Virus record (IMG/VR): IMGVR_UViG_3300023267_000001
Coordinates: 12,043-76,042 of that record
Reading direction: 5' to 3' (one strand)
Length of the DNA: 64,000 bases
Source: a virus
Lineage: Duplodnaviria > Caudoviricetes
Position 1 is the stretch's first letter. Each line of letters starts with the position of its first letter. A program made the position numbers and the translations under genes. Below are positions 29,347 through 57,604 of the stretch, in pieces. The notes beneath the pieces were generated by a model. That model was given only the letters and a program-made list of their open reading frames with translations. It did not search any database and was not told where the DNA came from.

Positions 29347-31170
29347 TCACGCGGGTAGTGCCGCAACCTCCGCGTCCAGCTTATACCATTGCGTTTCGCC
29401 CCCAATCGCCGGAGTTCCGTCTGCATTCAAAATAGCGATTTCCAGATACAAATAATTCCCCACTTCCCAAGTGTCCCAATGCATGTTTAAAGACGGAATC
29501 AAATTCTGAGCCTCCATCTGCGCAGCAGTCAACGCCTCTGGACATTTAAGGACTACATCAGGCTTAATTGTGTGCCACACCACGGAGCAGTAATCCCCAT
29601 CGTTAGGGTCGGTTAATTGCTCCGAAGTTCCAACCCTCAAGCGCGCGATGCAGGGGTTGTCTTGAGGTGCGGTATATTGGCCGATAATCACCTTGCGCAA
29701 AATCTTGGAGACATCGAACAATCCAACGGGAAGGATTAGGCGAAGGATGCGAGCAAAGCCACGTTTTTCCCACACCGGATTCGTGATGTTATCCTCAACC
29801 GGCTGCGTTGTTTTCTGCGTTACAAATTCACGGAATAGAACTCCGTTCAACTGTTTCAGCGCGTAATCCACGTTTGAAGCCGCGACCAATAGTTGAAGCG
29901 TGTTGCAGTCAGCGGTGCCGGTCGGATTCGGGATATAGCAGCACAGCGAGCTAAATCCTGAATCCAGATAATATCCGGTCAAAAACTTGGTGTTGAAAAC
30001 CATCGTCTGATTATTTGTGCAGGTTCCCGTCGAAGGCCAGCTTACAAAGATTTCATTCGTTATCGGTTTGAATGTGGCGACCATTGAATTACAGCAGTTC
30101 GCATTCACTTTGCGCGTTTTATCCGCGTAGATAAGCCCGCTGGCCTGTCGCAGCCATTCTGATGGCTCTGGTTTTGGCGCATACTGGTTGTAGGTGTAAA
30201 ACGATTCTCGCGCTCCGTAATAAAGATTTTCGCCATCAGATACAAGAGAGTCAGGATAAACCAGACAACCCTTGAAGTTCTCCGGCTCGGTATAGACGCG
30301 CGCGAAAGACAGCGCGGTATTAGCCACGGCATCCACTGACACTGTGCTTCGCCAGATGGATTTCTGCGTGAAGATATAGAGGTATTGCGTCAACTCAATC
30401 GCGGCTAATATTTGCTCGCCGCCTCCAAGGTCTTGAAAGTTAGCCACGGAGTCAGGCGCGGGTGCCCAGCTTTTCGGCAACGCTAAATCGGAATAACGCA
30501 CACGGCTGGGATGAGCTTCTCCTGACTCCACGGTGTTCATCAAAATCATCAATCCGCCGAACTGGATGACCACCTTTGCCTTGGTCAGATGAACGGTGTT
30601 CACCAAGTCTGGAATCGGAATGGCTGAACCCGCGCCTAAATCGTAGGAATAAACGCCATCCTTGTTGTTGGAGAAAATGACGGTGTTATTGAGAAAATCA
30701 CCGTGGAATTTAGAGCCACCAGCAATTCCGGTAAGCACGTCAGTCCACAATCCGGTGACTTCGTTCAGGTAGGATATTTCTGATTCCGTGCAGGCAAACA
30801 GGGTGCGCTTGTTGTCGTTATCCGTGACTTGAAGCATGAAGCTGACTGGCTTGCGGACGGGGACACCGCGATAATGGTAATCGAAATTTGTGTAAAAAAG
30901 GCAAAGCCATTGACCCCCAGACTCAACCACGCGGCCCCCATCTTCACAAATTAGTTGGTCGCGCGTTGGTGCGGTGTGCGTTACCACCTCGTAGCTGGCA
31001 AGAAACCGTTCAAACCCAGCCTCGTTAGTGAGTCGGCCATTTTCGTTGACCGGCCAGTTTTGTTTCTCGCGGAAACCGCCATCAGGAAGCTCGGTGGCGC
31101 GCGGGCGGGCGTCGAGCGGGCCGGTAAGCGGACTTAAACTTACCACTTGAAAACGTGATTTAGAGGCCAT
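29347..31170 (-). CDS. putative tail tubular B / head-stabilisation (beta-propeller) protein
   Basis: beta-rich repeats (VIQFGGLMIL, VRYSD..W, YLYIFTQKSIW), C-terminal beta-sandwich; size and synteny. Confidence 0.65.
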   Translation of the reverse strand: MASKSRFQVVSLSPLTGPLDARPRATELPDGGFREKQNWPVNENGRLTNEAGFERFLASYEVVTHTAPTRDQLICEDGGRVVESGGQWLCLFYTNFDYHYRGVPVRKPVSFMLQVTDNDNKRTLFACTESEISYLNEVTGLWTDVLTGIAGGSKFHGDFLNNTVIFSNNKDGVYSYDLGAGSAIPIPDLVNTVHLTKAKVVIQFGGLMILMNTVESGEAHPSRVRYSDLALPKSWAPAPDSVANFQDLGGGEQILAAIELTQYLYIFTQKSIWRSTVSVDAVANTALSFARVYTEPENFKGCLVYPDSLVSDGENLYYGARESFYTYNQYAPKPEPSEWLRQASGLIYADKTRKVNANCCNSMVATFKPITNEIFVSWPSTGTCTNNQTMVFNTKFLTGYYLDSGFSSLCCYIPNPTGTADCNTLQLLVAASNVDYALKQLNGVLFREFVTQKTTQPVEDNITNPVWEKRGFARILRLILPVGLFDVSKILRKVIIGQYTAPQDNPCIARLRVGTSEQLTDPNDGDYCSVVWHTIKPDVVLKCPEALTAAQMEAQNLIPSLNMHWDTWEVGNYLYLEIAILNADGTPAIGGETQWYKLDAEVAALPA

Positions 31171-31211
31171 TTCCGCTACAATAGCGGGACATTCTCATTT
31201 ATTCAACCCCA

Positions 31212-32135
31212 TTACTGCATCGGAATGTTGAACTTCTGCTGGAGCCAAGCGACATCGCGCGTGAACATGCCCTTGTTTTTTAGCTTTTCTGACTCAACCA
31301 ACCGCCAGTCTTTGCGGATGTCCTCTTGGGCAAGGTTCATCTCAGAGCAGCGCGGCATGGCGGCAATCATGCGCGTTTGCATGTCCTCTGGAAAGATGGT
31401 GTTTATGAGAAATAATTTATTATACAGCAGGGTTTGTAGGCCGTTGTGGAAGGGCAGCTTTTCGCCGTCACGGAAGCGATGCCAGACTACAAAGTTTTTA
31501 ATCAGGCGGACATCCGAGCCAGTGAGGTAAAACTTGAGGGCCATCAACTGCTCCTCAACACCCCAAGTTTTAAGGTGATTCATTCCAACGATTACTGGAA
31601 ATCTTTCACGCGGCGAAACGTAGCAGGCTCCCATAGGCGACGACAACTCAACGCCGTCATCCTGCTCTTTGGCCCAGACAGCTTCGAGAACCTGCATCCG
31701 GTTATGATTTGGGTCTTTTCCGATGAACTGTAAGTCTGCGCCGTAATAGACACCGGACGGATTTCCGAAAGGTTTTATGGTGGGTGCAAAACCCTTGCAG
31801 ACACCACATAGCAATGAGTCTGGGAACTTCTCAATTCCAGCCATTACATGCTCCAGCCAGCCGTGGGTGAACCGGCAATGACTGTCACACATAACCATGT
31901 AGTCGCCGGTTGCGATTTGCGCCCCAATGTGGCGGGACGCACCGCTGCCGATACGGTAAAGGTTGCGATGAACCTTGACGTTTAAGTGCGGTGGGAATAT
32001 CAGCGTCGCCGCGCTGCAATCATCGACCGCGACAATCTCCACTTCTTCGCCAGCAGTCCCCCGAATTGACATGGCGGTGGCAACAGCTTCGACCTGTTGG
32101 TTTACGGACGGGAATACAACGGAGATTTTAATCAT
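31212..32135 (-). CDS. GT-A glycosyltransferase, GT2/GT27 ppGalNAc-T-like
   Basis: ISVVFP, VAVDDCS, GASRHIGA..MCDSH, MGACY, WGVEE, VWHRFR. Confidence 0.8.
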   Translation of the reverse strand: MIKISVVFPSVNQQVEAVATAMSIRGTAGEEVEIVAVDDCSAATLIFPPHLNVKVHRNLYRIGSGASRHIGAQIATGDYMVMCDSHCRFTHGWLEHVMAGIEKFPDSLLCGVCKGFAPTIKPFGNPSGVYYGADLQFIGKDPNHNRMQVLEAVWAKEQDDGVELSSPMGACYVSPRERFPVIVGMNHLKTWGVEEQLMALKFYLTGSDVRLIKNFVVWHRFRDGEKLPFHNGLQTLLYNKLFLINTIFPEDMQTRMIAAMPRCSEMNLAQEDIRKDWRLVESEKLKNKGMFTRDVAWLQQKFNIPMQ

Positions 32136-32887
32136 AACTTTTTCAAAACCGCAGTCGGGCTTGCGAACGGAAAGAACTCGGTCGCCATGCACGGAAATTT
32201 CTCGTGACGTTGGAGCTTTAACCATGAATCCACCAAGCCTTTATATCCATAAAAATTCTCTTTGTAAATTAACTGCTCCTTGGTGGCGTAAGAAAAATGG
32301 TCAAACACAAGGCCCAATCTAGCTGATTCGTCAGCAGACATAAATGAACCCTTGTTACCATTTAAGCTTGGAGGTTCGTGAACTACTCCGACCATACCCG
32401 GCCTAAATCTCCAGAAGCGCAGCCAAGAATTATTGCGGTCTGATTCAGGGTCAACGTAAATATCCTTGCCGTAGAAATAACGGCACTTGAGATACATGCG
32501 CGCAATGGACTGCTCCAAAAATATGTCATGGATTTTGCGAAGCTGTTTGGCGGTGTAAATCTCGTCGGAGTCAATCTGACCAAGCAAGCAGGGCTGCTGA
32601 ATGTTGTTTATGGCTATCTGACACATTTCGTCTTTACCACCAGACCACCACTGACGATTAAAAACTTTAACGCGAGGGTGGTTGGAGATGGAGTTTAAAA
32701 ATTCTGTTGTTCCGTCTTTGCTCAGGCGAGGTTCTTGTTTTTGACACCATTTTGTCGAGCCAGTGTTGGCAGCGGCCCCATGTGAAACATACCAAAAAAA
32801 ATCCAATCCAGATTCCTCAAATATGGGAAGCTGCATTTTTATGTATGGCATGGAATCCAATGCCAGAGTGTAAAATACAACTTTCAA
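32132..32887 (-). CDS. GT2-like glycosyltransferase
   Basis: SKDGTTEFL, QIDSDEIY, VHEPP, FDHFSY. Confidence 0.7.
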   Translation of the reverse strand: MKVVFYTLALDSMPYIKMQLPIFEESGLDFFWYVSHGAAANTGSTKWCQKQEPRLSKDGTTEFLNSISNHPRVKVFNRQWWSGGKDEMCQIAINNIQQPCLLGQIDSDEIYTAKQLRKIHDIFLEQSIARMYLKCRYFYGKDIYVDPESDRNNSWLRFWRFRPGMVGVVHEPPSLNGNKGSFMSADESARLGLVFDHFSYATKEQLIYKENFYGYKGLVDSWLKLQRHEKFPCMATEFFPFASPTAVLKKL

Positions 32888-33573
32888 ATCATTCCTCTGG
32901 ATTTTAATTCAGCCATCTCGTCGTCAGTGATTTTCTGCAAATAAAAGCATTCGTCATCAAAATTAACCGGCCTCTGACGGTCGTAGCCAAATGAGAACTG
33001 TTTGAACTTGTTTGGATATGCGGCCATCAACCGAACGTATTTAGCTTCCGGCAAATTCTGATGCGTCTCCTTGCCGCACGATAGATAAAGCCTGCAAAAT
33101 TCAAGGATGAAGGAATGTTTAACAAGGAACAATGATTGCGCGGCTGGCATCACTTTCAACTTCCCAAAGATGCAACCGGCGTCACCGATTTCTTCATACA
33201 TTTTGTCAAGACATGGGCCGAACCAAAGGCAATCCTGCTCTTTGAAAATAAAGTCTTTTTCCTCATTGTAGGCAATCATTGCCAAAATCAGTATGGAAGC
33301 CGACCAGCCGCATATCTCATGGTTTTTAAAAGGTGGCTCGATACCAATCAGACCATGAACGTGACCAAGATTGCCTTTGATTGGAATCAAATTAACCATC
33401 GGCTGCGAAGGATTTAGCGTGCATCCTCCAACACCCAAAACATGGATTGCAGCAGGGTTTGAATACTGCAATGTGTTTCTCAGCCAAGTGTTAAAAAACC
33501 ACTGTGCTTGGACTTCGCCAGCGGGCTTGTAGAAGAAGCCAGAGCCGATGACATACTGGTTATCGTGATTCAT
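32884..33573 (-). CDS. putative GT-A glycosyltransferase
   Basis: DFIFKEQDCL DxD-like motif after a beta strand; island context. Confidence 0.5.
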   Translation of the reverse strand: MNHDNQYVIGSGFFYKPAGEVQAQWFFNTWLRNTLQYSNPAAIHVLGVGGCTLNPSQPMVNLIPIKGNLGHVHGLIGIEPPFKNHEICGWSASILILAMIAYNEEKDFIFKEQDCLWFGPCLDKMYEEIGDAGCIFGKLKVMPAAQSLFLVKHSFILEFCRLYLSCGKETHQNLPEAKYVRLMAAYPNKFKQFSFGYDRQRPVNFDDECFYLQKITDDEMAELKSRGMI

Positions 33574-33577
33574 AATT

Positions 33578-34387
33578 TTATTCCCAATCAATCTCCGGCG
33601 TTTCCGGTGCTTTAACTGCACCAACCAGCCACGCAACAAACGGCATCGCCTGCGTCATTCTGCCGGGGAAGTGAATCACACACGGGCGTGAACCGCTCTT
33701 TAAAACCACAGGCGCATCATCGCGACTCTTGGTGAAATCGTATTCGTTAAACGGCGTGTTCGAGAAATGGTTGAAAACCCGCTGCTCAAAGTCCACGCGC
33801 AATGGAAATGCGTGTTCGACGTAGGCAACCTGCCACATGTGCTGGTCGTTGCTGTATAAAGGTGGATGACTGCTGGCAATCCTGTCCTCTTTTACGAGCT
33901 TGGACAACGCCACCATGCGCGCGTAAGCCACGTTAAACGATTCACGGTTTGCCATCCATGCGCCAGCATTGATGTAATCGAATCCAGAGGCATGTTTTCC
34001 GAATCGTGCCGCCCAAGCTGGGTCGATGTGGTGGGCGCACATCGACGAGCCTGAAATCAGCATCGGCCAGCCAATCGCGTTGAACTCGTCGCAGATGGAT
34101 TGCAGCGACCTAACAAATATGCAGTCGCGCGCATCGACGTAGAGGATGAATTTCACCGATTCCGGCAGGGAATCAATCTTGGGCTTCAACCGAGTCAGCT
34201 TCATCTCGAAACTGTTGTCGATTTCGATGGTGTTGTATTCGTAGCGCTCACCACGCATGAAGGAAATCAGGTTGATGCCCTGCGTCTTGGCCGATTGTTG
34301 CATGAATCCAGCGGTGGATGGAACGTCTTGCTTGCGTTCGTATGCAAGAATGCTGACCACGGAGGTATTTTCGGGGGTTGCAATCAT
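33578..34387 (-). CDS. PLOD/LH3 GT-domain-like glycosyltransferase
   Basis: KLTRL, ILYVDARD, YINAGAWM, NDQHMW, VDFEQRVF match the PLOD N-terminal GT motif order. Confidence 0.7.
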   Translation of the reverse strand: MIATPENTSVVSILAYERKQDVPSTAGFMQQSAKTQGINLISFMRGERYEYNTIEIDNSFEMKLTRLKPKIDSLPESVKFILYVDARDCIFVRSLQSICDEFNAIGWPMLISGSSMCAHHIDPAWAARFGKHASGFDYINAGAWMANRESFNVAYARMVALSKLVKEDRIASSHPPLYSNDQHMWQVAYVEHAFPLRVDFEQRVFNHFSNTPFNEYDFTKSRDDAPVVLKSGSRPCVIHFPGRMTQAMPFVAWLVGAVKAPETPEIDWE

Positions 34388-34980
34388 TTTTTTGGTAGCC
34401 AACTTCCTGACCAATGGTGAATCGCGTAACTATCCTGATGCGCCAATCGTTCATGTGCTGGCGAGTCATGCAGGAACGGGTAAAAGAACTCTGTCGGCAG
34501 AATCGTAACGCCTTCTCGTGGCGCGCGCGTAGCGATATAGACTCCAAATGCCGCGTCTTGAGTCTTTAGCGCATCTTCATTCTCAATCTGCCAACGAATC
34601 CAAGGATGGCCTGCTGACGCCCCTAGGATTGCATTACAGACGCGGCCAACATCTTTCTCAAACATGATTTTGTCCTGCAATGCGCAGAACGCACTCAAGT
34701 CCAGAAGCGTGTCGAATGGTTTTAAAACCTCCACATCAGAATCGAGATACACGCCCCCAAATTTATCCAGAGCGTGAAGCCTGACAATGTTTGAAAGGCT
34801 GGCAAAATTCTGACAGTCGGACATCAGCGCGTTGTAATCCAGCCCAAGGTCGGCGATGTTGTTTTCATTCCAGTAGAAAATCTCCCAATCTTGATGATGC
34901 TTGAGCGCGGTTTTGCGACATCGTTCAGAGGGGGCATCGAGCGAACCGAAATGCACAAAATGTAGGTTTTTTGGAATCAT
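34384..34980 (-). CDS. GT32 (DXD sugar-binding) glycosyltransferase
   Basis: IPKNLHFVHFG, SNIVRL..GGVYLDSDV, FYP, HHWSGSW. Confidence 0.9.
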   Translation of the reverse strand: MIPKNLHFVHFGSLDAPSERCRKTALKHHQDWEIFYWNENNIADLGLDYNALMSDCQNFASLSNIVRLHALDKFGGVYLDSDVEVLKPFDTLLDLSAFCALQDKIMFEKDVGRVCNAILGASAGHPWIRWQIENEDALKTQDAAFGVYIATRAPREGVTILPTEFFYPFLHDSPAHERLAHQDSYAIHHWSGSWLPKK

Positions 34981-35549
34981 TAGATTTTACGCAGGCAGAA
35001 CGACGGGAACTCCTCTTCGCTGACGGCCACGAGTTTCCAGTCAGTTTCTTTGCAGAATTGGGCGACTGCTTTTTGGACTCCCCAACCGTATTTAACAGCC
35101 GTCGGATGGTCATCGCAGAAGTCGTGGCCCATTATTGACGCCGAGGGGGACATAACTCTTGACCACGCCCGAAGGTCGGCTAGAACGGAATCGTAATCGT
35201 GCGCGGCATCTAAAAAAACACCGTCAAACGTCACCCTGTTTTCAAAAGCCATTTCAGCGGCCCCAAGCGAATCCATTCTCATTATGGCATATCTGCCGCC
35301 ATGCCTGTGGCCTTGGATATTTTCCAGTGTTTCAAGATAGTTCGCCTCGTGGTCAACTGACGGGTCGGCAAGCGGGTCATTGTAATCATCGCGCTTTCTC
35401 CAGCTATCTACGAGCCAGACATGATTCAAGTTTGGCAGGCTTAAAATCTCGTTTGAGAAATATCCGCGCCAAACTCCGACTTCTGCGATGCTGGAGCCTT
35501 TGGGCAAACTCGCAATCATTTCAATCCGCGTCTTGAATTTTTGAATCAT
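34980..35549 (-). CDS. class I SAM methyltransferase (Methyltransf_24-like)
   Basis: AEVGVWRG, LVDSW, FLDAAHDY, GHDF. Confidence 0.9.
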   Translation of the reverse strand: MIQKFKTRIEMIASLPKGSSIAEVGVWRGYFSNEILSLPNLNHVWLVDSWRKRDDYNDPLADPSVDHEANYLETLENIQGHRHGGRYAIMRMDSLGAAEMAFENRVTFDGVFLDAAHDYDSVLADLRAWSRVMSPSASIMGHDFCDDHPTAVKYGWGVQKAVAQFCKETDWKLVAVSEEEFPSFCLRKI

Positions 35550-36082
35550 AACTTTTGAAACGCGATGAAGCTGTCGGCAGAGTCGAATTTGGGCATTAGG
35601 TTTCTAATTCCATCGGCCTGCAATTCCTTAATCGCTTTCGTCCCACCTTCAAACATAGGGTTTCCATTGTCGTGAAAGCTGAAAATACCACCATTAACCA
35701 AAGCTGGAAAGAATTTATCAAACACGGCAATCGTGTCATCGTAGGTGTGAGAATGGTCAACAAAAATAAAACTCAGCCCCGTCTCCTGTTTCAACTCCGT
35801 CTTGTTGAAATCCTCGTTCAGAATATCAACCTGTCCAGCGTGTCCGTGTCGCACGAGATTGGCGAACAGCGTATCGCACTGACCTTGCTCGATGCAGATA
35901 AGCCGCTTGTCAGACCGCAGGACGGAGCAGATTACCAATGCGCTTAAACCGTTCAGCGAACCGATTTCAAGCGCGTGGCCGTCAAGGTGCGCCGTGGCTA
36001 GAACGCAGCGTTGGATGGCCTGACGTTCACCCTCGGTTAAATAACCAAGGACTTCTGGAAATTTGCCGGAGGAGTTTTTCAT
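35546..36082 (-). CDS. class I SAM methyltransferase (Methyltransf_24-like)
   Basis: LEIGSLNG, FVDHSHTY, GGIFSFHD. Confidence 0.85.
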   Translation of the reverse strand: MKNSSGKFPEVLGYLTEGERQAIQRCVLATAHLDGHALEIGSLNGLSALVICSVLRSDKRLICIEQGQCDTLFANLVRHGHAGQVDILNEDFNKTELKQETGLSFIFVDHSHTYDDTIAVFDKFFPALVNGGIFSFHDNGNPMFEGGTKAIKELQADGIRNLMPKFDSADSFIAFQKL

Positions 36083-36462
36083 ACAATAAACCTCCAGACT
36101 GCCCAGATGGTTACGATATGCCAGACGTTATCGACCACAATCATGCTCCACGGCGCACATGGGCCGGTGCGAAATTTGTGTTGTCCGATTAAATCCATCC
36201 ACCAAGAAATGATGTTGGTGCGGTCTTGGATAAAGTGAGTCCAGAAAAGAATTTGCCAAGTCCATGCCGCGTTGCCAGTCCATAATGGAGTCAACCAATT
36301 ATCCCATCCAGCAAACAGGCAAACAGTGATTGACCATATCAATGCATGAACACAACAATGAAATGAGCTTTTCTTTTTGTTAAGGGCTTGCCAATCATTT
36401 TGAAGCAGGTAGTCGCCGACAAGGTGGCCGATGATGGCGAGCGTTAGGGTGTTTTGATTCAT
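36079..36462 (-). CDS. DUF3307 membrane protein
   Basis: HLVGDYLLQ..K..H..HFIQD..DNVWH. Confidence 0.8.
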   Translation of the reverse strand: MNQNTLTLAIIGHLVGDYLLQNDWQALNKKKSSFHCCVHALIWSITVCLFAGWDNWLTPLWTGNAAWTWQILFWTHFIQDRTNIISWWMDLIGQHKFRTGPCAPWSMIVVDNVWHIVTIWAVWRFIV

Positions 36463-36911
36463 TTTGTCAGGCGGAATCTGGCAGATTCCAGTTCATCTTT
36501 GGCTTCTCCGATTACGCGCCAATGGCCATAAATGGCGGGTCGTTTTCCATCACCATCAATGTCGCGCGCGATGTCTCGGAATCCGGCCAAGGAAAGAAAC
36601 GAGGCGAGAGATTGTTCTGTCCAAAAACTTAAATGCCCATGACCCAATAAAATATCTCTGGCATGGTCTGGCTCCAGTCGGTCAACAACAGGGCAGGAAA
36701 TATGCAGCAATCCTCCAGATTTAAGGATTCTCCTTGCCTCAATAAGAAACCTGAAAAAGTCTTGGGGCGCACAGTGTTCCCCGCAGTGTTCAAGAAGAAC
36801 CTCTTGCACTGATTCAGATTCGTATGGCAGCGGCTTTGTTATGTCAACCTCAGCGTCGTGGTTATTCCAGCCTTCAAGCTGATTGCCTCCAGAGCCGAAT
36901 TGAATTTTCAT
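36459..36911 (-). CDS. small SAM methyltransferase (type 11-like)
   Basis: IQFGSG..GWNNHD..DITKPLPY..LEH..RRILKSGG. Confidence 0.85.
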   Translation of the reverse strand: MKIQFGSGGNQLEGWNNHDAEVDITKPLPYESESVQEVLLEHCGEHCAPQDFFRFLIEARRILKSGGLLHISCPVVDRLEPDHARDILLGHGHLSFWTEQSLASFLSLAGFRDIARDIDGDGKRPAIYGHWRVIGEAKDELESARFRLTK

Positions 36912-36944
36912 AATTCAGAGAGTGCCAAAAGTGGCGTTGTCTTG

Positions 36945-37652
36945 TCAACCAACTTTATGAAAAATCTCCGCGTATGGAAAAGTTAAAACCCAAGGCTTCC
37001 AGTCTGGAACCTCGTTTCGCATTTTCATAATCGCCTCAACCATGCGCGTATTTTCAGGAGATTGACGCGGAAGATTACAGCGCGCGTCGGGAACCACACC
37101 GGCAAAACGGATGATGTTCGCGGCCAGATTCCGCTTCATAAATCCGGCAGGCTGGATGCGCTTTTCAAACTCGCCGTCGTTTCCGTAAGTGCCGACGAAT
37201 CTTTCATCGTGACCACCGATTTCCCAGAACGCTTTTTTGGTCAGGAACCAAGAATTTTTGTGCGGAGGATTCGGTTTCATGTCGGGGTATTGCATTCGGC
37301 TGAAAGTATAAACCGCCTTTGGGTCGAAGTTTCCATAAACCAGATACTCCATTGTTTCCACGGGAACAACATGGTCGATGTCCGTCATTAAAAGCCAGTC
37401 TCCAGAAGCCTTGGCAGCAGCGAGGTTTCGGCAGAATTGCCAGTTCCAAAGCGCGTCGATTCCGGTTCTGAAAAAACGCGATTTCAGATTTAGACTGGGG
37501 ACGACAAGCGGATGCTTCGGCGAACAATCGTCGGTCACAATGAGTTCAAGCTTTGAGCGGATGTCCTCTGGATAGCCGATTATGACCTTTAGCTGATGCT
37601 CGAGCATCAGTGGATTATCGTAAAACGGAAAAGTTAAAGTGAGCCGGTTCAT
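36945..37652 (-). CDS. GT2/GT7-like glycosyltransferase
   Basis: VTDDCS, RNLAA, MTDIDH, IGGHDERFVGTYGND. Confidence 0.85.
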   Translation of the reverse strand: MNRLTLTFPFYDNPLMLEHQLKVIIGYPEDIRSKLELIVTDDCSPKHPLVVPSLNLKSRFFRTGIDALWNWQFCRNLAAAKASGDWLLMTDIDHVVPVETMEYLVYGNFDPKAVYTFSRMQYPDMKPNPPHKNSWFLTKKAFWEIGGHDERFVGTYGNDGEFEKRIQPAGFMKRNLAANIIRFAGVVPDARCNLPRQSPENTRMVEAIMKMRNEVPDWKPWVLTFPYAEIFHKVG

Positions 37653-38626
37653 AAAAAGGGAATGGATTCCAGAATGAAACCGCAAGCCCCTCTGTGTCCT
37701 CCACCGCCATGTTTTTTAGCTATGGCAGAAAGGTCTATGCCGGTGTTATGTCGCGCATGATAGAGTGAAAAAATGTAGCGCGCGCCATCGTAATAAAAAC
37801 CCATTAAAGCATCGTGGCCTGTCTTTGGCACATCTTTTGAGCTAAACGTCAAGCTGTTGAACCTGATTGAATTTAGGCATAGAAATTTCAATCCTTCCCA
37901 TTCAACTAAAAAGCTTCGCTCCATTGCGCCCCTGTCAATACTGCGCTGGTATTCTTGCAGCAATGCGCCATCGTCAAGCATGGCCGCAACAGTGCTTGGG
38001 ATGGAACCCCCGTCCTTCGGAAAGGATAGCAAGTCTCCTTCTTTGACTTGATTATATTGAAGCATACACCGCCAAGTTTCAGCGTTTAGCTCACGACTTC
38101 GCAGCCCAAACTGGAATGTTTCGGCATTGTGGTCGCGTTTGTCCCAGATGTCGTATTCACCAGCGAGACGCACGGCGTATGGCTCCAAAACATCTCGGTT
38201 TATGAATTGCTCTTTTGTTGGCAGTGTCAGAAAAAATTGTTCATTGCGAGCGTTCTGAGCATTGTGCTGGTCAATGGAAAAGTATTGCCAAGCCAAGCGG
38301 CACGCCGCCACCCCGTCGATACGATAGCCCAAGATGTCAGTGGGATGCGTTTCTATGCTAGTTTTGTGGTGGTCAATCCAGATAACTCGATTAAGCAAAA
38401 ATCCTGTTCCGTAAACTTTGTTTTTTGAAAAATCATCAAATCCAAAAACACGGTCAACTGGCAAGTCGAGGACATAAACCATGCCTGATTCTGGAAATTT
38501 TAGGGGCTTGTCTTTGTAATCCCACCCAATGTATTCAACATCGCTTGTGCCAAGAAAATGCTTTGAGACTTCGCGGCAGAAGATTCCATCGAAGTCAGCG
38601 GAGTGGTAAATGACAGTTGTTTTCAT
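37649..38626 (-). CDS. DHH/DHHA1 phosphoesterase
   Basis: YHSADFDG, VLD, WIDHH, GGGGHRGACGF. Confidence 0.85.
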   Translation of the reverse strand: MKTTVIYHSADFDGIFCREVSKHFLGTSDVEYIGWDYKDKPLKFPESGMVYVLDLPVDRVFGFDDFSKNKVYGTGFLLNRVIWIDHHKTSIETHPTDILGYRIDGVAACRLAWQYFSIDQHNAQNARNEQFFLTLPTKEQFINRDVLEPYAVRLAGEYDIWDKRDHNAETFQFGLRSRELNAETWRCMLQYNQVKEGDLLSFPKDGGSIPSTVAAMLDDGALLQEYQRSIDRGAMERSFLVEWEGLKFLCLNSIRFNSLTFSSKDVPKTGHDALMGFYYDGARYIFSLYHARHNTGIDLSAIAKKHGGGGHRGACGFILESIPFL

Positions 38627-38629
38627 AAT

Positions 38630-40972
38630 TTAAATGCAGTTGTTTTCTGTAAAGTGTAAATCAGGCAGGTTTTTAGCAGCCCAATCCTTGAAAATCTTGC
38701 CGTTGTGCAAATTCGCTGGCGATGTGTGGACATACCCGCTCTTGGCCCAAGCTGACTCGTGAGAGATGTGAAAAATATAACCCTTGGGACACTCCGCTGG
38801 GAAAATATGTTTCAAGAAACTGGCCCTGTCTGACTTTATTCCGTGGTAAAGCCGGATTAGCGCAGTCATCATAACGTCCCAGTTTGCGGCGGCTAGAATT
38901 GGCTCCCCCAACTCATCCCAATGTTTCACCAGCCATGACTTTTTGAAAACAAAAAGGTCGCGACCAAAGTGGGGTTGCGCGTTTTTTGCCATCTCGACCG
39001 GATTCAATGCGCGGGTTGCGACTGCATGTTTAATCTCAACCCTTTGGCTCGAACAGGCATCATAAACCGACCCGTAAAAACGAATCATTTCAGGTAAGTC
39101 GAGGTGTAGGATATTGTCGTCATTCGTAAAAAAAATTAAATCGTTGTCGTCAGCCTGCTCCATCGCCATCTTGAGCAAATCTTTCAAATATGGCAATGCG
39201 CGCGGCTCACCAATCTCCCGTGCGTCACGCGGATATTTCCACATGTGAACCGGCAACACTTTTCCCGTGGCGTAGATGGCATCCCAAGAGTCGTTGCAAG
39301 CCCTCTTCCTGTTCGCGGTGTCGATGTTGGTTTCCTCGTGGCGTTCGGTGATGTGGAACAGGCGCACGGATGGGGCGGGCTTGATTGGTGTTTTCCCAAT
39401 CGGGTTTGCCGCGCCATCCCCAAGACTTTTGTGCCACTTATCCGCTGCAATTATTTTACCAATGCCTTCAAAAACTCGCTGCTTCGTGGCTTCCGCGTAG
39501 GTAATTCGCTCAAAGCAGTTGCAACGCAACATGCTGCCAGCCCAAGGCTGGGGATTCACCAACGCCACCACGGGCACGCTAGACGCAGCGGCAAGGTGTA
39601 ATAGTGCGGTGTCGATACTCACAAGTCCGATGGCGTTATCCATCAGCCCAATGATGTCATAAATCTTTTCAGCGCGAACCTTGTCTAAATCAACCACGTT
39701 TAAAGATTCGCCGAACGCCTTCTTGATTTCTTCAAGCAGGGCAACTCCACCTGAAAACGGCGAACTGACTCCAGACGTGACTTGAACCAATAGCATTGGT
39801 TTGTCTGTGGATAACTTGGTGACAAGCTGCGCCTCGCGGTGGGCATCTCGCCGGTCAAAAACCAAATCCAGCGACGGGTCTTTGAAGCGGTGTTCAAATC
39901 CGAGCATTTTCCACGACTGGACATTATAGCTCGCGCATGTTTTCTCTGGCGTATAATTCTTTCCGTAGATTTGAGCCTGCAACACTATGGGGAACTTTGG
40001 ACGAGCAATATCCATCGCGGTCAATACGCGGCTGTAATCAATGTCCACGATTTCAGGAATGACGTAGCTGACGCCTTCAAGGACGGATGCGAACTCACGG
40101 GACACCATCAGGTGAGGCTTGGCGTAGTTTTCAGCGATGTGCTTGCAAATTGGAAGGATGTTCACGATGTCTCCAAAGCGGCCCAACTCGACGATGCACA
40201 CCGGCCATTTATGATTCTTCTTCTGGTTATACGCATCCATAAAATCCTGCATCATCTTCTTCGGGTCGTGTTCCAGAAACGGCTTCAAAATAATGTCGCC
40301 AGTTTTCTCCGAACCAACGCGAATCCTGCGGCGCAAATCTTCGGCAATGCGGTCATGCGCGGTTTGAAATCCTTTTTTGTCCTCGCCCATGCCGGAGACG
40401 TGGTGCGAACCGTTTCCCCAAGAATAGAAGAATGAGATTTCATTATCCACCAGATTGAAAACGCGGCCAGATAGTTGCGATGTCAGCCTGCCGACAAAAT
40501 TCCTGTCCTCGCCAACGGTGAACTTATCGGAATATTTTCCAACTTTTTCCCACGCTTTTTTCGTGAATGCGAAACACGGCATCTGACCACCGACAATCTT
40601 GGATATTTTGAACTGCTCGCAAAAAAATTGCTTGTCGAGATGGACCCAGTTATGACCACCTTCAAATCCTGCGGCAAAGTTGCGCAGGTGGTTTTCGCCA
40701 AAAATATCGTCATCGTCATAAGTCACGATATGCGTTCCATCCGCGTGCTCAACAGCGATATTGCGCGCGGCTCCAAGCGAGATTGGCCGCTCTTTCAGAT
40801 TGATTATTTTGACGTTCTGAAAGTCGCCGTAAAGCGTTTGCTGTGGGCAGGTATTCAGGATTAAAAGCTGCGACTTGCCATCGTATTTCTGGTTTAGGAA
40901 ACAGGCGATGGCTTGTTCGAGGAATTTAACTCTCCCAAAAGTGACGCAGGCTGCGGTTATGAATGGATTCAT
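38630..40972 (-). CDS. tri-domain glycosyltransferase fusion (GT2 + GT9-like + GT-A-like)
   Basis: RNIAVE..YDDDD; LGRFGDIV..SIDTALLHLAAA; LPYLKD..FTNDD..GRDLF..H. Confidence 0.8.
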   Translation of the reverse strand: MNPFITAACVTFGRVKFLEQAIACFLNQKYDGKSQLLILNTCPQQTLYGDFQNVKIINLKERPISLGAARNIAVEHADGTHIVTYDDDDIFGENHLRNFAAGFEGGHNWVHLDKQFFCEQFKISKIVGGQMPCFAFTKKAWEKVGKYSDKFTVGEDRNFVGRLTSQLSGRVFNLVDNEISFFYSWGNGSHHVSGMGEDKKGFQTAHDRIAEDLRRRIRVGSEKTGDIILKPFLEHDPKKMMQDFMDAYNQKKNHKWPVCIVELGRFGDIVNILPICKHIAENYAKPHLMVSREFASVLEGVSYVIPEIVDIDYSRVLTAMDIARPKFPIVLQAQIYGKNYTPEKTCASYNVQSWKMLGFEHRFKDPSLDLVFDRRDAHREAQLVTKLSTDKPMLLVQVTSGVSSPFSGGVALLEEIKKAFGESLNVVDLDKVRAEKIYDIIGLMDNAIGLVSIDTALLHLAAASSVPVVALVNPQPWAGSMLRCNCFERITYAEATKQRVFEGIGKIIAADKWHKSLGDGAANPIGKTPIKPAPSVRLFHITERHEETNIDTANRKRACNDSWDAIYATGKVLPVHMWKYPRDAREIGEPRALPYLKDLLKMAMEQADDNDLIFFTNDDNILHLDLPEMIRFYGSVYDACSSQRVEIKHAVATRALNPVEMAKNAQPHFGRDLFVFKKSWLVKHWDELGEPILAAANWDVMMTALIRLYHGIKSDRASFLKHIFPAECPKGYIFHISHESAWAKSGYVHTSPANLHNGKIFKDWAAKNLPDLHFTENNCI

Positions 40973-41025: not shown

Positions 41026-44000
41026 TCAAGAGGACGAGATATTCAGCGACCAAGAACCAATGGCCCCCGTGTCAGACGAAGAAACATCTTGAACCCACAG
41101 AAGCCAGACACCATTCGGATTTTTCCCGATGAATGCAGCCAATGTGAGATTCGGAGTTCCAGACGGACATGGCAGCGGGAAGGCTGAAAACACTCCGAGT
41201 TGCGACGGTTTGAAAGTTCCGCTGACCATTGTGGAGCCAGATATTGAGCTACCAGACGCGTCGTCCAGAACCAGATTGATTCCAGTCACAGGCACGTTGC
41301 CGCCCACGTTGCGTAACACGTTTACCAGTGTTCCATCGGGAGCCATCAAAATTATCGAAACGTCGTTAGGTCGCTGGTGCTGATAGCCATTGATTGCCAG
41401 CGTGACCTTCGTAATCAGGCCAGTTAGCCCACTGACGCAGGCAACGCTCGGATAAGGCGTTGCCTTGCCAATGTCGTTAATCGTGATTCCATTCGCGCTG
41501 ATGTCAACGCAGGTGCAACTAATCGCGGCGTCTGCCGCAGCTTTGGCCGCTGCTAATGCTTGCGTCTGGGCGTCCAGCAGGCTCACCAAGCTCGTATAGT
41601 TCGCTGTCTTAGTCACAGACTGGCCGGTTTTACCAATGGGGCAATTCGCGGTGTAGGATTCCGTCGCGGTGTAGGCGTTGATGCACTGAATCGCAGCTTG
41701 GGCGGCGGCAAGCGCGGAGTTGTAAGCCTTGGTGTCAGCGTCGGCCTGAGAGATTAAACTGGTTGCCGTGGCTGATTTGCACAGTTCTGGCGTGGCTGCG
41801 AATGCCAGTCCACCAAAGCTGTAAGCTGTCAGCGTGGTCGTCGACTTGTCATAAACCAGTTTGAAATACTTGTAGTTAATCGGGTCAAACGTTCCACAGG
41901 ACGCGATTTGAATCTGTGACGGCCTTGTGATGTCGCCGTTCACATCTGCTGCGAATCCGCGATTGGATGTGAAGTAAATCTTCGTCCAGTTGACGGCATC
42001 ATTTGAACCATAGAGCGAAAGCGCAAACTGGTTCGGAGTCGCAATCATCGTGAACGTGAAGCAGATGATGTTCAGAATAGGTGGCGTGGTGAAATCAAAG
42101 TAGGTGCCATCAGAAACCTCAACTTTCACATTCGGGCCAACAGCATCGTTGTCAGCCGTGACTTGAGTTCCACCACTTGGGCATGTCGCACAAGCCGTCT
42201 GGCTGCTGCTGTAGTTCGTTGGCGGCGTGTAGCCACCGGCCTCAATACTTGGCAGCGGGCTTGGGTCAGGCAACTGGACGCCGGGGGGCGTGTCGAGGCA
42301 ACCAGAGCCATAGCAGTTGTAACCAGCGGCATAACCATATGTTGCCGGACTTCCGCCGAACATCTGGAATCCAGAGATAAAGACGTTGAATCCACTGGTC
42401 GCCAGTGAAACATTCAGGCGGTAATACGAGAATGCCTGCGTGTTGTTGATTTGAAACCGCGTCGGCGGCTGGATGCAAGTTGCGTCAGGCCAAGGATAAT
42501 TCGTCTGGGTGTCCAGTGTAACAAAATTAACGCCGTCATTTGAGCCTTGGAACGTCCAAGTTTTAGGCCCAAGACTGCAACTGGTCGGGCTTGCGTCATA
42601 ATCCACGCCCACAAACTCATAGGCGGTGACAAGCTGCGGGGTTTCAAATTTATACTGTAACCATGCAGGCATCACCGCGCTTTCCCAATAGCTTTGGTGT
42701 GGGTCAAACGGGCCAGCGTTAGGAATGCCGCAGAAGGCTTTCCAAGGCTCCATTGAAAGATTTGGGTCACCATCATGCGAGGGTACATGCGAGCTTGCAG
42801 AGGCCACTCCAGACGGCGTGGTGTCGCTCGTCATCGGCGGTATCAGCGCAACCACTCCGGTTCCGATTGGCACATAGGCTGAACCAATGCCGCAGGCAGG
42901 CGGGATGTAGGTTTCGTTCTCGGTTGAAAAGTCGTCAAACAGCAGAGTTTCAATGTTGGTGGCGTCATCGAATGAAACCGAGTCGAGCAACAATCCTGCG
43001 GCGGGAGCAGCAGCGGGAGTTGCGGTCTGCTGAAACCGAATCCAGACATTGACGTTATCTGGTGCGACGAATGAGAACGACTGCGGTGTGAATCCCTGCT
43101 GATAGTTGTTAATCGTGAATGACTGATTCAGATAATCTACTTGTGAGCCAGTGGTGTTCTGCGTGGGAACAATCGCGCAGGCTGAAATCGTGTTGAGCAG
43201 AATCGCCGCCTGCATGTCGGCCATGTTCATGTGGTCAACATAGACTGGCGCGGTGTTCGCAATGGTGGCAATCAGGTAGTATGGGCTGTCCGGCGACTGG
43301 CCGGTGGTGCGATAGATGTTGATTGCCGTCGCAGATGGATTCGCCGTGGTCTGGACTGAAATGGTGGCGGTGTCGCCGGTCGGTGTCGCCGATGAAACAG
43401 GGCTTCCAATGGTTTCACCATACGCATTGGTGTAGGTGTAAACGTATTTATACGTGGGTGTGTCGCCCAACGGCGCGCCGGATTCATTCACGGTCAGCGC
43501 GGGAGCGATTGATGGATTGGTGAGGCCATCGTTGTTGCGGCCAAAAATCCGCATATTCACCGTGTTTGGAGAACCATTGTATCTTTGGTTTCCAGCCAGA
43601 TTCAAAGACAGGCGATAGTTGTGGCCGGACTGCAACGCAAATGAGTTTTTGGACTCGAACTGACCATTGTGCGGCGAGGAGGAGCCAGCGAGGTCAACGT
43701 AGAGGCTGTTGTTTGGCAGGAAATCCAATAATCCATTACCAATCAAATCCACGTTTCCGCCGTAAACATTCCAGTTTTTGAAAGCGCAGTAATCAAGCTG
43801 GCCTGTGGCGACGTAGGTATCACCGGCAGGGGTGCAGTTGCCCGCGCAGAGATAGCCCTTCATGCCGTTGAAAATCTCAATGGCTTCGGCGGCAACAGCG
43901 TTGTAGGAGTTTAAGAAGAATCCACCGGATGAGAAAGCCTCCAACAGCGAGAATGGAGTTCCGGCAGCGCGAACGCCCAAGCAGATGACGACGCCGCCAG

Positions 44001-44793
44001 AGGACTTGAACACACTCAATGCGTTCAAGGTATCAGTGGCATCCGTGGCGATATTGGAGGTGTCCTCGCCGTCGCTGATGATGACCAAAACTTTCTGGTC
44101 GAGTCCGGCTGCGTCCAATGAGGCGATGGCCGCATTGACGGCAACTTTGTAGCCGGTCAACTGCGCTGCGCTGGCGATTGAGTCCACCGCTGTAACCACT
44201 GAATTAACATTGGAGGTGATGGCGGCAAGAGGGGTGTATGCCGAATCATCGAACATTGACAGGCCAACCACATCCTTGGTCGCGTTGACCTGACTGATAA
44301 ACCGTCGGGCCGCAGCTTTGGCAAAGTCAATGCGTTGCGGATAGGCACCGCTAAACGCCTGCGTCATGGACTTGCTGATGTCCACCAAAACCATGAAGCC
44401 GACCTTTACTTGGTCACAGCAGTTGACGCCACCCAGCACGGAAAGGCTCGCGTTGGCTGTCATAATGCCATAGGTGGCGGTAATCGTGGTGACACCATCA
44501 TCTAAAGCCGTCGCATTGCCGCTGGAAGCCCCCACCACGGCGACATTGGAGTTGGAAGTGGTGAACACCGCGCTCGATGTCACATCGCGCTCACGGCCAT
44601 TGCTGACGACGTAGGCCTTGAACTGGATGCTGCCAAGCAAGCAAGACAGCGCGGACTCCGGCTTGATGATAAGCTGGGAGGAAATCCCACAGATGCCGGG
44701 ATTCAGCAGGGCAAAGGCTGGGTCATCACAGCGTGCGTCAACTGGCGGCGGCGTATTCGCGCAATTCGCACTGGTTATTCTTCCAAAGTTCAT
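41026..44793 (-). CDS. multidomain tail/adhesion protein (Ig-like, vWA, carbohydrate-binding, discoidin, P-domain)
   Basis: Big_2-like FTTSNSNVAVV; MIDAS DISKS..T..SDG; F5/8C WLQYKF..GSNDGVNF; P-domain ..PDGT..NGVWLLWVQD..G.I.SW. Confidence 0.75.
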   Translation of the reverse strand: MNFGRITSANCANTPPPVDARCDDPAFALLNPGICGISSQLIIKPESALSCLLGSIQFKAYVVSNGRERDVTSSAVFTTSNSNVAVVGASSGNATALDDGVTTITATYGIMTANASLSVLGGVNCCDQVKVGFMVLVDISKSMTQAFSGAYPQRIDFAKAAARRFISQVNATKDVVGLSMFDDSAYTPLAAITSNVNSVVTAVDSIASAAQLTGYKVAVNAAIASLDAAGLDQKVLVIISDGEDTSNIATDATDTLNALSVFKSSGGVVICLGVRAAGTPFSLLEAFSSGGFFLNSYNAVAAEAIEIFNGMKGYLCAGNCTPAGDTYVATGQLDYCAFKNWNVYGGNVDLIGNGLLDFLPNNSLYVDLAGSSSPHNGQFESKNSFALQSGHNYRLSLNLAGNQRYNGSPNTVNMRIFGRNNDGLTNPSIAPALTVNESGAPLGDTPTYKYVYTYTNAYGETIGSPVSSATPTGDTATISVQTTANPSATAINIYRTTGQSPDSPYYLIATIANTAPVYVDHMNMADMQAAILLNTISACAIVPTQNTTGSQVDYLNQSFTINNYQQGFTPQSFSFVAPDNVNVWIRFQQTATPAAAPAAGLLLDSVSFDDATNIETLLFDDFSTENETYIPPACGIGSAYVPIGTGVVALIPPMTSDTTPSGVASASSHVPSHDGDPNLSMEPWKAFCGIPNAGPFDPHQSYWESAVMPAWLQYKFETPQLVTAYEFVGVDYDASPTSCSLGPKTWTFQGSNDGVNFVTLDTQTNYPWPDATCIQPPTRFQINNTQAFSYYRLNVSLATSGFNVFISGFQMFGGSPATYGYAAGYNCYGSGCLDTPPGVQLPDPSPLPSIEAGGYTPPTNYSSSQTACATCPSGGTQVTADNDAVGPNVKVEVSDGTYFDFTTPPILNIICFTFTMIATPNQFALSLYGSNDAVNWTKIYFTSNRGFAADVNGDITRPSQIQIASCGTFDPINYKYFKLVYDKSTTTLTAYSFGGLAFAATPELCKSATATSLISQADADTKAYNSALAAAQAAIQCINAYTATESYTANCPIGKTGQSVTKTANYTSLVSLLDAQTQALAAAKAAADAAISCTCVDISANGITINDIGKATPYPSVACVSGLTGLITKVTLAINGYQHQRPNDVSIILMAPDGTLVNVLRNVGGNVPVTGINLVLDDASGSSISGSTMVSGTFKPSQLGVFSAFPLPCPSGTPNLTLAAFIGKNPNGVWLLWVQDVSSSDTGAIGSWSLNISSS

Positions 44794-56471: not shown

Positions 56472-56888
56472 TTATTCAATTTCGATATTTCGGGCGGCGG
56501 TTAGGGCGGATTTCGCATCATGGAATTTCTCGCCCCACTTACGAATGTTTTCGATTGCCAATGCTGTTTGAACAAAACCTTCGCTTCGTAGAATTTCAGG
56601 CTTAATAGCCATCGAATCAGCCCAGCAAATGTTCAATGCTTTTTCAGCCTCATCCAACGCAGCCAGCAACTTTGGAAAATGATTTGCGGCGTGAACCAGA
56701 TATTTAATCGCATCCTGATTATCGTCGTCACTGTTCCAGTCGGATAAAATGACGTGGCCCGATGCTGATTCAACATCTGTCCGGTCGTCGTATTCTCCAG
56801 TGTCTCCAAGCGGACACCGGACGTTTTGGTGTTTTAATGGAAGCAACTGCGTTATCTTCCCCATCAGTTCTTCGAGTGTTGGTTTCAT
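56472..56888 (-). CDS. hypothetical phage protein
   Basis: AIKYLVHAANHFPKLLAAL motif common in phage hypotheticals. Confidence 0.65.
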   Translation of the reverse strand: MKPTLEELMGKITQLLPLKHQNVRCPLGDTGEYDDRTDVESASGHVILSDWNSDDDNQDAIKYLVHAANHFPKLLAALDEAEKALNICWADSMAIKPEILRSEGFVQTALAIENIRKWGEKFHDAKSALTAARNIEIE

Positions 56889-57604
56889 GGTTTATTTATT
56901 CTTGTTTTTGATATGTTAAAAAACACTTCATCTTTTTCGATTCCAATAAAATTTCTACCGGTGTTTTTACATGCAACCCCAGTCGTTCCGGCACCCATCG
57001 CATTATCAAGCACAGTGTCGCCATCGTTTGAAAAAGTTTTTACAAGGTATTCCATCAAGGCGACCGGCTTTTGATTTGGGTGAAGAACCACACCCTCGGA
57101 CTCGGCGGTTTTGAAATACACGACATCCGTAGGGTAACGTCCGCCTTCACTCTTTACCAAGACTGGATTAAAGTCATTATAGCTTCCGGTCTGCTGCGCC
57201 TTTCTCACACCCTTTGAGTAAGCCGCTCCGGTTGAAAACTGAGGATTGTATGTGGAGTTTTTTTTATAAAAAACACAGATGTCCTCGTGTTTTCGCAATG
57301 GCTGTTTCTTGGCATTAAGAAAGTTTGTGGCCTTGGACTTTTCCCACACGATTTTATATTTGAACAGAGTTACGTTACTCATAATCAAATGGGCCGTAAA
57401 AATCCCTTGCGATGTAAGGCAGATGACGCCAGATGGTTTTATTATCCTTTTATATTCCACCCAAAGTTTATCCATCGGCATCACGCTGTCCCAAGAATTT
57501 CTCGTGGTTCCGTAAGGGAGGTCGGCAAGAACCATGTCGATTGAATTGGTTTTTATTTCAGCCATTTTATCCAAGCAGTCGCCTAAAATTAGGATGGGTT
57601 TCAT
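56885..57604 (-). CDS. amino (N6-A/N4-C) DNA methyltransferase, beta class
   Basis: GDCL, DMVLADLPYG (motif IV), HPNQKP, VLDNAMGAGTTG (motif I). Confidence 0.9.
   Translation of the reverse strand: MKPILILGDCLDKMAEIKTNSIDMVLADLPYGTTRNSWDSVMPMDKLWVEYKRIIKPSGVICLTSQGIFTAHLIMSNVTLFKYKIVWEKSKATNFLNAKKQPLRKHEDICVFYKKNSTYNPQFSTGAAYSKGVRKAQQTGSYNDFNPVLVKSEGGRYPTDVVYFKTAESEGVVLHPNQKPVALMEYLVKTFSNDGDTVLDNAMGAGTTGVACKNTGRNFIGIEKDEVFFNISKTRINKP

Follow-up and report, generated by a model that had tools for sequence, protein, structure and literature searches.

The 64,000-nucleotide window analyzed here is bases 12043 to 76042 of the IMG/VR virus record IMGVR_UViG_3300023267_000001 (Caudoviricetes). The record contains 76,042 bp and is rated complete. 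Within the window lies an island of 12 minus-strand genes, numbered g1 to g12 by coordinate, with seven glycosyltransferase (GT) genes and three S-adenosylmethionine (SAM) methyltransferase genes. We propose, with a probability of about 0.6, that the island carries out cytoplasmic O-glycosylation of virion proteins as part of a late operon, chiefly on an exposed poly-threonine (poly-Thr) tail of the major capsid protein. The proposal draws on the candidate initiating enzyme g1, on the conserved capsid tail, and on the occurrence of the two together among relatives.

The candidate initiating enzyme has the following position and class.

31212 to 32135, minus strand: g1, soluble GT-A glycosyltransferase resembling the GT27 catalytic domain, 307 amino acids (aa) (Pfam GT2, E = 8e-13; PDB searches).

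A phmmer search of the PDB with g1 placed polypeptide N-acetylgalactosaminyltransferases (ppGalNAc-Ts; family GT27) in all top 14 places. A profile of eight homologues returned ppGalNAc-Ts as its top 16 matches, with E values from 2e-28 to 5e-19 and Toxoplasma GalNAc-T3 among them. The first match outside GT27 was a chondroitin synthase (E = 5e-10). The profile match spans residues 4 to 255 and takes in the whole GT27 catalytic domain. A DxH motif (D84-S-H86), a WG..E motif, and H219 are invariant across the eight homologues. We take DxH and H219 to correspond to the manganese ligands, and WG..E to the Gal/GalNAc-T motif, of GT27. The protein contains no transmembrane or hydrophobic segment and no ricin-type lectin domain, its sole Pfam match being GT2. 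It is thus GT27 catalytic-domain-like and does not have the canonical GT27 architecture.

The g1 family is large and unnamed. An exhaustive search retrieved 809 metagenomic clusters at E <= 1e-30. Vertebrate GALNT12 proteins, which a word-indexed search gave as the nearest relatives outside the lineage, were rejected as an index artifact, since the exhaustive search gave these unnamed clusters instead. Long multidomain members of the family encode GT2 in 38 of 38 cases and a ricin domain in 0 of 38. Ten of the 38 encode a LanC-like peptide-modifying domain, which is consistent with a peptide-directed family. Further members are fused to a second GT2, LicD, or Methyltransf_24. Judging from sequence, these proteins may form an uncharacterized peptide glycosyltransferase family. 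A tblastn search of 50,697 GenBank phage records, mycobacteriophages included, found no match to g1 at E = 1e-3. We regard g1 as a candidate initiating peptide O-glycosyltransferase.

The candidate acceptor is encoded about 6 kb upstream of the island.

47313 to 49031, minus strand: major capsid protein, 572 aa, ending in GGSGTTTTTTYH (AlphaFold and Foldseek).

The protein has no Pfam or PHROG match. Its AlphaFold model has a predicted local distance difference test (pLDDT) score of 71, and the top Foldseek matches are the HK97-fold capsids of phage VP1 (E = 8e-15) and phicrAss001 (E = 5e-13). By its predicted structure it is an HK97-fold major capsid protein. The C-terminal TTTTTT tail is predicted to be disordered, with pLDDT below 50 at residues 563 to 572. 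The tail, GGSGTTTTTTYH, contains the sole run of five or more Ser or Thr residues in any real gene of the genome. A poly-Thr tract stands at the same place in 108 of the 120 capsid homologues compared, the most distant of which is 51% identical, and the residues flanking the tract vary. Its Thr codons are mixed, so the tract appears to be maintained at the protein level. In about 13 homologues (including P0027, P0030, P0064, P0087, P0094, P0119, and L025/L026) the tract is followed by an additional C-terminal DUF5977 domain, which it connects to the capsid core. This domain is otherwise found in the adhesin-like proteins. A linker to a displayed domain argues that the tail lies on the outside of the particle. 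The sequence pattern makes the poly-Thr tail a candidate glycan acceptor. Searches of GenBank phages by tblastn with the capsid and by megablast with the island gave no match, and no cultured relative or host was found by this route.

Related loci were gathered with the capsid as the query. The capsid is encoded by 31 IMG/VR loci, and a g12-only query matched none. Among relatives with poly-Thr capsids and records at least 64% complete, g1 is present in 9 of 9. Two relatives have capsids that lack poly-Thr. G006 (88% complete) has a capsid ending in ...EGATYLPQ and contains no g1, g12, or GT2; its slot holds a single 224-aa gene. G007 (63% complete) has a capsid ending in ...GELDYYGEY and also lacks g1 and g12. 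The count covers these IMG/VR records; capsid homologues without poly-Thr also exist on Logan contigs (P0014, P0055, and P0106).

The island spans window positions 31212 to 40972, or extends to 40996 with an alternative ATG of g12, and makes up 13% of the genome. Gene starts were refined with upstream stops and homologue alignments. The genes are joined by six ATGA overlaps, one TTGA overlap, and one TAATG overlap, and the remaining junctions are two gaps of 3 to 4 nt and one of 33 nt. The island is an operon-like array that is continuous with the structural genes. The order on this strand is a 798-aa gene (possibly the portal, judged by position), a 446-aa gene, the 572-aa capsid gene, a 150-aa gene, a 666-aa DUF5977-repeat gene, a 1255-aa adhesin gene, the island, and a 607-aa virion gene. 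Glycan-building classes account for 10 of the 12 island genes, and the GT2 matches from a six-frame search of the whole 76-kb genome are confined to the island.

This layout agrees in most respects with the sequence-only reading that preceded the analysis. That reading described 12 contiguous, co-oriented genes joined mostly by overlaps, and 8 of the 11 junctions are overlaps. It placed them between two tail genes; both flanks are virion genes, but only the 1255-aa flank matches a tail family, and the 607-aa flank matches a "virion structural protein" family. Its estimate of about nine GT domains in seven genes is reasonable, with six supported by family or fold and three by hints at the fold level. 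A GT7-like label was not reproduced in the window. The three SAM methyltransferases, the DUF3307 protein, and the DHH protein that it listed were confirmed by Pfam (g6, g7, g9, and g8) and by PHROGs (g8 and g11).

The same reading had found no nucleotide-sugar synthesis genes, and this holds for the whole 76-kb genome. Six-frame searches retrieved no Epimerase, NTP_transferase, or thymidylate-synthase-like (PF00303) gene; positive controls worked for PF00303. All sugar donors would therefore be host derived. No island GT or methyltransferase encodes a convincing transmembrane segment. Borderline hydropathy windows are present in g7 (residues 37 to 55) and g12 (residues 453 to 471), both within globular domains. 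Flippases, polymerases, and GtrA/B/C-type proteins were not found among the open reading frames (ORFs) searched against Pfam, in line with the earlier statement that such proteins are absent. The sole membrane protein of the island is the DUF3307 protein.

The largest island gene encodes a fused triple transferase.

38630 to 40972, minus strand: g12, triple glycosyltransferase, 780 aa (Pfam GT2 and weak GT9; AlphaFold model).

The g12 model was built from a 46-sequence alignment and has a pLDDT of 92. Domain A (residues 1 to 245) is a GT-A domain of the GT2 type and matches 6p61 (Z = 21.1; root mean square deviation [rmsd], 2.3; 178 residues aligned). Domain B (residues 253 to 513) is a GT9-like GT-B domain. 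It matches WaaF 1psw (Z = 17.1; 241 residues aligned; rmsd, 3.8), GT9 3tov (Z = 16.8), the protein O-heptosyltransferase TibC 4rap (Z = 14.6), and 2h1f (Z = 14.4). Its score against Pfam PF01075 (GT9) is 20.3 to 20.8 bits versus a cut-off of 22, and some homologues carry a precomputed PF01075 match. Domain C (residues 535 to 780) has no Pfam match even at a loose threshold. Alignments of the two-GT-A synthases PmHS2 and K4CP take in about 370 residues over positions 1 to 776 of the g12 model, which is roughly double the yield of one domain. An hhalign comparison of domain C with domain A gave a weak alignment near the DxD region (P = 8e-4). Domain C is a probable GT-A domain according to the model. 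About 150 g12 homologues were found on contigs of 70 to 83 kb. They include two-domain and four-domain forms, some lacking the middle domain and others having extra domains, which confirms the modular nature of the fusion.

The remaining five transferases are smaller.

32132 to 32887, minus strand: g2, probable GT-A glycosyltransferase, 251 aa, TTG start (ESM Atlas model only).

32884 to 33573, minus strand: g3, probable GT-A protein with the nucleotide-diphospho-sugar transferase fold, 229 aa (ESM Atlas model only).

33578 to 34387, minus strand: g4, PLOD-type GT-domain-like protein, 269 aa, variable cassette member (Pfam GT_PLOD, E = 2e-5; 24.1 bits, below the cut-off of 27).

34384 to 34980, minus strand: g5, GT32-type glycosyltransferase with a DXD sugar-binding region, 198 aa (Pfam Gly_transf_sug, E = 4e-12).

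36945 to 37652, minus strand: g10, GT2 glycosyltransferase, 235 aa, variable cassette member (Pfam PF00535, E = 2e-5; 24.9 bits, above the cut-off).

The g2 model (pLDDT, 0.89) matches viral GT2-bearing clusters at a template modeling (TM) score of 0.9 and bacterial GT2 at TM scores of 0.62 to 0.64. The g3 structure matches GT8, GT34, Nucleotid_trans, and GT2 clusters at TM scores of 0.64 to 0.69. Neither protein has a match in Pfam (at a loose threshold as well), PHROG, or PDB sequence searches, and their GT-A assignment is a lead, not a proof. Homologues of g2 are encoded in G001, G002, G003, and G010, and homologues of g3 in G001, G003, and G010. The g5 homologue in G001 is 49% identical. 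G001 lacks g4 and encodes an NAD epimerase/dehydratase between its g5 and g3 homologues. A collagen link for the PLOD-like g4 was considered and rejected, as the genome contains no Gly-X-Y repeats. The six-frame GT2 search of the genome also matches at g10.

Five further genes complete the island.

34980 to 35549, minus strand: g6, class I SAM methyltransferase (Methyltransf_24), 189 aa (Pfam PF13578, E = 5e-11; weak match to the RMNT_CmcI rhamnosyl O-methyltransferase).

35546 to 36082, minus strand: g7, class I SAM methyltransferase (Methyltransf_24), 178 aa (Pfam PF13578, E = 1.5e-14; weak match to the O-methyltransferase PF01596).

36079 to 36462, minus strand: g8, DUF3307 membrane protein with a hydrophobic segment, 127 aa (Pfam DUF3307, E = 1e-7; phrog_2470 "membrane protein," E = 2e-13).

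36459 to 36911, minus strand: g9, compact SAM methyltransferase (Methyltransf_11), 150 aa (Pfam PF08241, E = 4e-5; PHROG methyltransferase family).

37649 to 38626, minus strand: g11, DHH/DHHA1 phosphoesterase, 325 aa (phrog_4771 "DHH phosphoesterase," E = 2e-20).

From its family, g6 is a candidate sugar O-methyltransferase. Homologues of g6 were found in G001 and G003, of g7 in G001, G003, and G010, and of g9 in G001 (62% identity) and G010 (46%). The g8 homologue of G010 lies outside the island, before the putative portal gene, and G001 has none. The DUF3307 protein is probably a passenger and not a member of the pathway. The g11 protein contains the motifs HSADFDG (DxD), WIDHH, and GGGGH, and a PDB sequence search with it gave no meaningful match. 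Its homologues adjoin the g12 homologue in G005 and G028.

The slot has fixed ends and a variable middle. In loci whose sequence extends far enough, the adhesin gene is followed by a g12 homologue, and the gene immediately before the 607-aa virion gene is a g1 homologue. The g1 and 607-aa genes adjoin in all relatives examined. In L024, L025, L026 (G010), L021, and G002, the pair has moved upstream of the 798-aa gene and onto the opposite strand, and the two genes are still adjacent. The rest of the cassette in these genomes stays downstream of the adhesin gene. The closest relative, G001 (79% capsid identity), lacks g8, g10, and g11 in addition to g4. The G003 cassette encodes an epimerase/dehydratase and a GT34, and G004 encodes a separate GT9. 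Relatives thus differ from the present genome in encoding nucleotide-sugar epimerase/dehydratases. The middle genes shared with G001 are only 40 to 50% identical, compared with 62 to 79% for the flanking virion genes. A divergent and variable middle beside a constant g12 and g1 indicates that the glycan cassette in this slot evolves quickly between two fixed ends. Across relatives, g1, g12, g2, g3, and the methyltransferases recur together. G001 also contains an HNH homing-endonuclease gene inside its cassette (L014:9046-9600, minus strand). Such an endonuclease could drive cassette turnover. In G007, a collagen-triple-helix-repeat protein (L045:13618-14859, plus strand) is encoded directly before a GT2-Methyltransf_11 fusion (L045:14856-16118, plus strand). 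The collagen-like protein may be a different glycosylated virion fiber.

Gene content, families and folds, the packing of the operon, the capsid fold, and the conservation of both the poly-Thr tract and the slot are shown by the present data, and from them we infer an acceptor, the sugars, an order of steps, and a methylation target. In the first step, g1 would place a sugar on the Thr hydroxyls of the tail, probably an N-acetylhexosamine from a host uridine diphosphate (UDP) sugar. In the second, g12 would extend and branch the chain together with g2, g3, and the variable g4, g5, and g10. In the third, the methyltransferases g6, g7, and g9 would cap sugar hydroxyls. The phosphoesterase g11 may clear nucleotide by-products, which is a guess. 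Given the quick turnover of the middle of the cassette, related phages probably bear different capsid glycans. More tentatively, and with less than even odds, the hypervariable slot may act for particles as an O-antigen "serotype" locus does. A GT27-like enzyme would prime poly-Thr on every capsid subunit, and a set of transferases, methyltransferases, and in some phages nucleotide-sugar enzymes would then make a phage-specific glycan, giving cytoplasmic mucin-type O-glycosylation across a widespread uncultured lineage. It would be the first such case outside actinobacteriophages and the first GT27-like-initiated one in a prokaryotic virus.

Several observations weigh against O-glycosylation of the capsid tail. 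The G007 slot holds a different cassette, with two GT4 and two GT2 genes, beside a capsid that has no poly-Thr tail, so cassettes in the slot can serve other targets. On the capsid tree, G007 forms an outgroup with a long branch, and G006 falls within an unresolved polytomy. The association of g1 with poly-Thr may therefore rest on one or two events only. Co-occurrence with Ser/Thr capsid tails was a check suggested by the sequence-only reading; it came out positive in the counts (nine relatives with both features, two with neither) and is tempered by this small number of possible events. Three of the nine GT domains (g2, g3, and g12 domain C) have fold-level hints only. One island gene, g8, encodes a membrane protein. 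Soluble GTs are also able to modify lipid-linked acceptors at the membrane's inner face. The lack of any g1 relative among GenBank phages makes the analogy with mycobacteriophages one of function and not of homology. Stepwise cytoplasmic assembly of a glycan on virion proteins, as first proposed from the letters, is accordingly supported in part. Gene content, soluble GTs and methyltransferases, position in the structural operon, the GT27-like g1, and a poly-Thr tail that tracks g1 favor it; the membrane protein, the G007 cassette, and the epimerase/dehydratases of relatives do not. The long, O-methylated glycan and the complete pathway of that reading are putative.

The cassette could instead, or in addition, glycosylate other virion parts, namely the 607-aa protein, the 1255-aa adhesin, or the DUF5977-repeat protein. 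The adjacency of g1 and the 607-aa gene survives genome rearrangement, and no virion protein is richer in Ser/Thr than the adhesin and the DUF5977 protein (18 to 19%). G007 encodes slot GTs without a poly-Thr tail, plus collagen-like proteins beside a GT2-methyltransferase fusion, and mycobacteriophages, according to the accounts cited below, modify capsid and tail tube alike. None of the three proteins contains a homopolymeric Ser/Thr tract, however, and the capsid tail is the sole mucin-like tract and tracks with g1. We consider these other targets unlikely. It is likewise improbable that the enzymes remodel a host envelope glycan (lipopolysaccharide [LPS], capsule, or S-layer glycoprotein), for example, against superinfection or against progeny sticking to debris. 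LPS and capsule loci typically encode GT2, GT9-like, and GT32 enzymes and sugar methyltransferases, and the best fold matches of g12 domain B are LPS heptosyltransferases. The island does include a membrane protein, and soluble GTs commonly act on undecaprenyl-linked intermediates. Yet the Pfam-searched ORFs yielded no flippase, polymerase, GtrA/B/C-type protein, or integrase, and the island lies within the structural operon of an apparently lytic phage. In addition, g1 resembles peptide-directed GT27 and not lipid-directed enzymes, and G006 lacks the poly-Thr tail and the cassette alike.

The transferases could also glycosylate phage DNA bases as an evasion of restriction, DNA modification being a classical activity of phage GTs. 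DNA glycans of diverse kinds have been described (Pyle et al. 2024, as cited in PMC12619734), and nucleotides could be substrates of a DHH phosphoesterase. The genome, however, encodes no thymidylate-synthase-like hydroxymethylase (PF00303, six-frame search), and the island lies among late structural genes and not replication genes. GT27-like and GT9-like enzymes and three sugar-type methyltransferases also misfit classic T4-type glucosylation, the one DNA-modifying system compared. We judge this role extremely unlikely. The island could also be a mosaic in which unrelated accessory genes share a permissive slot but no pathway, which would account for the differing middle content among close relatives, the HNH endonuclease within the G001 island, and the placement of DUF3307 elsewhere in G010. 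It is at odds with the 10 of 12 genes in glycan-building classes, with the confinement of all GT2 matches of the genome to the island, and with the joint recurrence of g1, g12, g2, g3, and the methyltransferases across relatives. Such a mosaic is very unlikely. We therefore favor glycosylation of virion proteins and regard the capsid tail as their chief candidate acceptor.

The island is flanked by two virion genes.

41026 to 44793, minus strand: upstream flank, multidomain tail/adhesin protein, 1255 aa (Pfam Big_2, VWA, F5/8-C, DUF5977, and P-domain; phrog_17517 "tail protein," E = 9e-24).

29347 to 31170, minus strand: downstream flank, virion structural protein, 607 aa (phrog_3287 "virion structural protein," E = 3e-27).

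Synteny of the adhesin gene is kept in all relatives, and the 607-aa gene is always immediately downstream of g1. A PDB sequence search with the 607-aa protein gave no meaningful match. The 41-nt gap that precedes the start of this gene contains an 8-bp stem-loop (window 31171 to 31189), with no T-run after it on the coding strand. A promoter and terminator scan found sites no more numerous than in shuffled sequence and was uninformative on expression timing. No obvious Shine-Dalgarno sequence was seen at the starts inspected (window 29347 to 53639), except AGAGGAA before g2, and upstream regions are A rich. One g1 homologue is labeled as coming from a Bacteroidota metagenome-assembled genome. 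This label and the start-codon context are a weak hint of the host phylum.

Elsewhere, the window contains a 2137-aa ORF (window 21590 to 28003, plus strand) with no Pfam, PHROG, or PDB sequence match. At a guess, it is a giant virion protein as in crAss-like phages, such as a virion RNA polymerase. The replication and early region (window 4004 to 12514 and 56885 to 62628) encodes an RNA ligase, AAA ATPases, a PDDEXK nuclease, NUMOD3 and HNH endonucleases, an N6/N4 DNA methylase, and a DnaB helicase. It also contains a match to the sliding clamp (DNA polymerase III beta) below the Pfam cut-off. An IS1-type transposase fragment lies within the first 12 kb of the genome (L002, 8780 to 9754). No transfer RNA genes were found. 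No integrase was present among the ORFs searched, and the phage is apparently lytic.

Eukaryotic ppGalNAc-Ts are the closest characterized counterparts of g1 in the PDB searches. These enzymes start mucin-type O-glycans. They share with it the catalytic domain, the DxH motif, the Gal/GalNAc-T motif, and the third metal-ligand His, and the candidate acceptor resembles mucins in being a Thr run. The phage enzyme differs in having 307 aa with no ricin-type lectin domain or membrane anchor and in its predicted cytoplasmic action on a putative donor and acceptor. Domain B of g12 has the GT-B fold of the TibC/Aah autotransporter heptosyltransferases and the LPS heptosyltransferases (GT9). TibC-type enzymes glycosylate proteins in the cytoplasm. 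Domain B differs from them as the middle part of a three-transferase fusion with a sub-cut-off Pfam GT9 score, and its use of ADP-heptose is putative. Gtr-type serotype conversion (GtrA/GtrB/GtrC) employs a membrane flippase, a bactoprenol GT, and a polytopic transferase in a temperate setting, and none of these was found among the ORFs searched. Chloroviruses and mimiviruses also encode GTs and sugar methyltransferases for the glycans of their own particles, independently of the host glycosylation machinery (PMC9614988). They are eukaryotic viruses with other capsid folds, and many encode nucleotide-sugar pathways, whereas the present phage encodes none.

The nearest functional parallel is with mycobacteriophages. 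Che8, Corndog, and Myrna carry glycans on the C termini of capsid and tail-tube subunits (Freeman et al. 2023, as reported in PMC12619734 and PMC12363180). Within the searchable literature, and by these accounts, they are the only phages with experimentally shown particle glycosylation, which shields virions from antibodies. No description of poly-Thr capsid tags or of GT27-like enzymes in phages turned up in full-text literature searches. The systems have in common phage-encoded GTs, a capsid C-terminal acceptor (proven there, a candidate here), and cytoplasmic action with host sugars, as far as these sources describe them. The present system belongs to an uncultured lineage whose genomes measure about 75 kb and whose capsid fold is crAss/VP1-like, and it has a GT27-like candidate initiator and a pure poly-Thr candidate acceptor. 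Its predicted cassette is much larger, with seven GT genes, three methyltransferases, and a DHH phosphoesterase in a variable slot. Homology to the mycobacteriophage transferases (Che8 gp110 and Corndog gp38) was not found for g1, the one GT covered by a tblastn search. If the proposal is true, this would be a second, unrelated, and much larger system, and sugar-coated capsids would be a general phage strategy. It is found in an abundant environmental lineage, where a simple poly-Thr tag is paired with an initiator like the mucin-type enzymes of animals. The compact, soluble tag and enzyme pair could then serve glycoengineering in bacteria, and the fast-changing cassette would be a genomic marker with which to predict capsid glycan diversity from metagenomes. 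The system shares the logic of the mycobacteriophage one, and not its enzymes, lineage, or scale.

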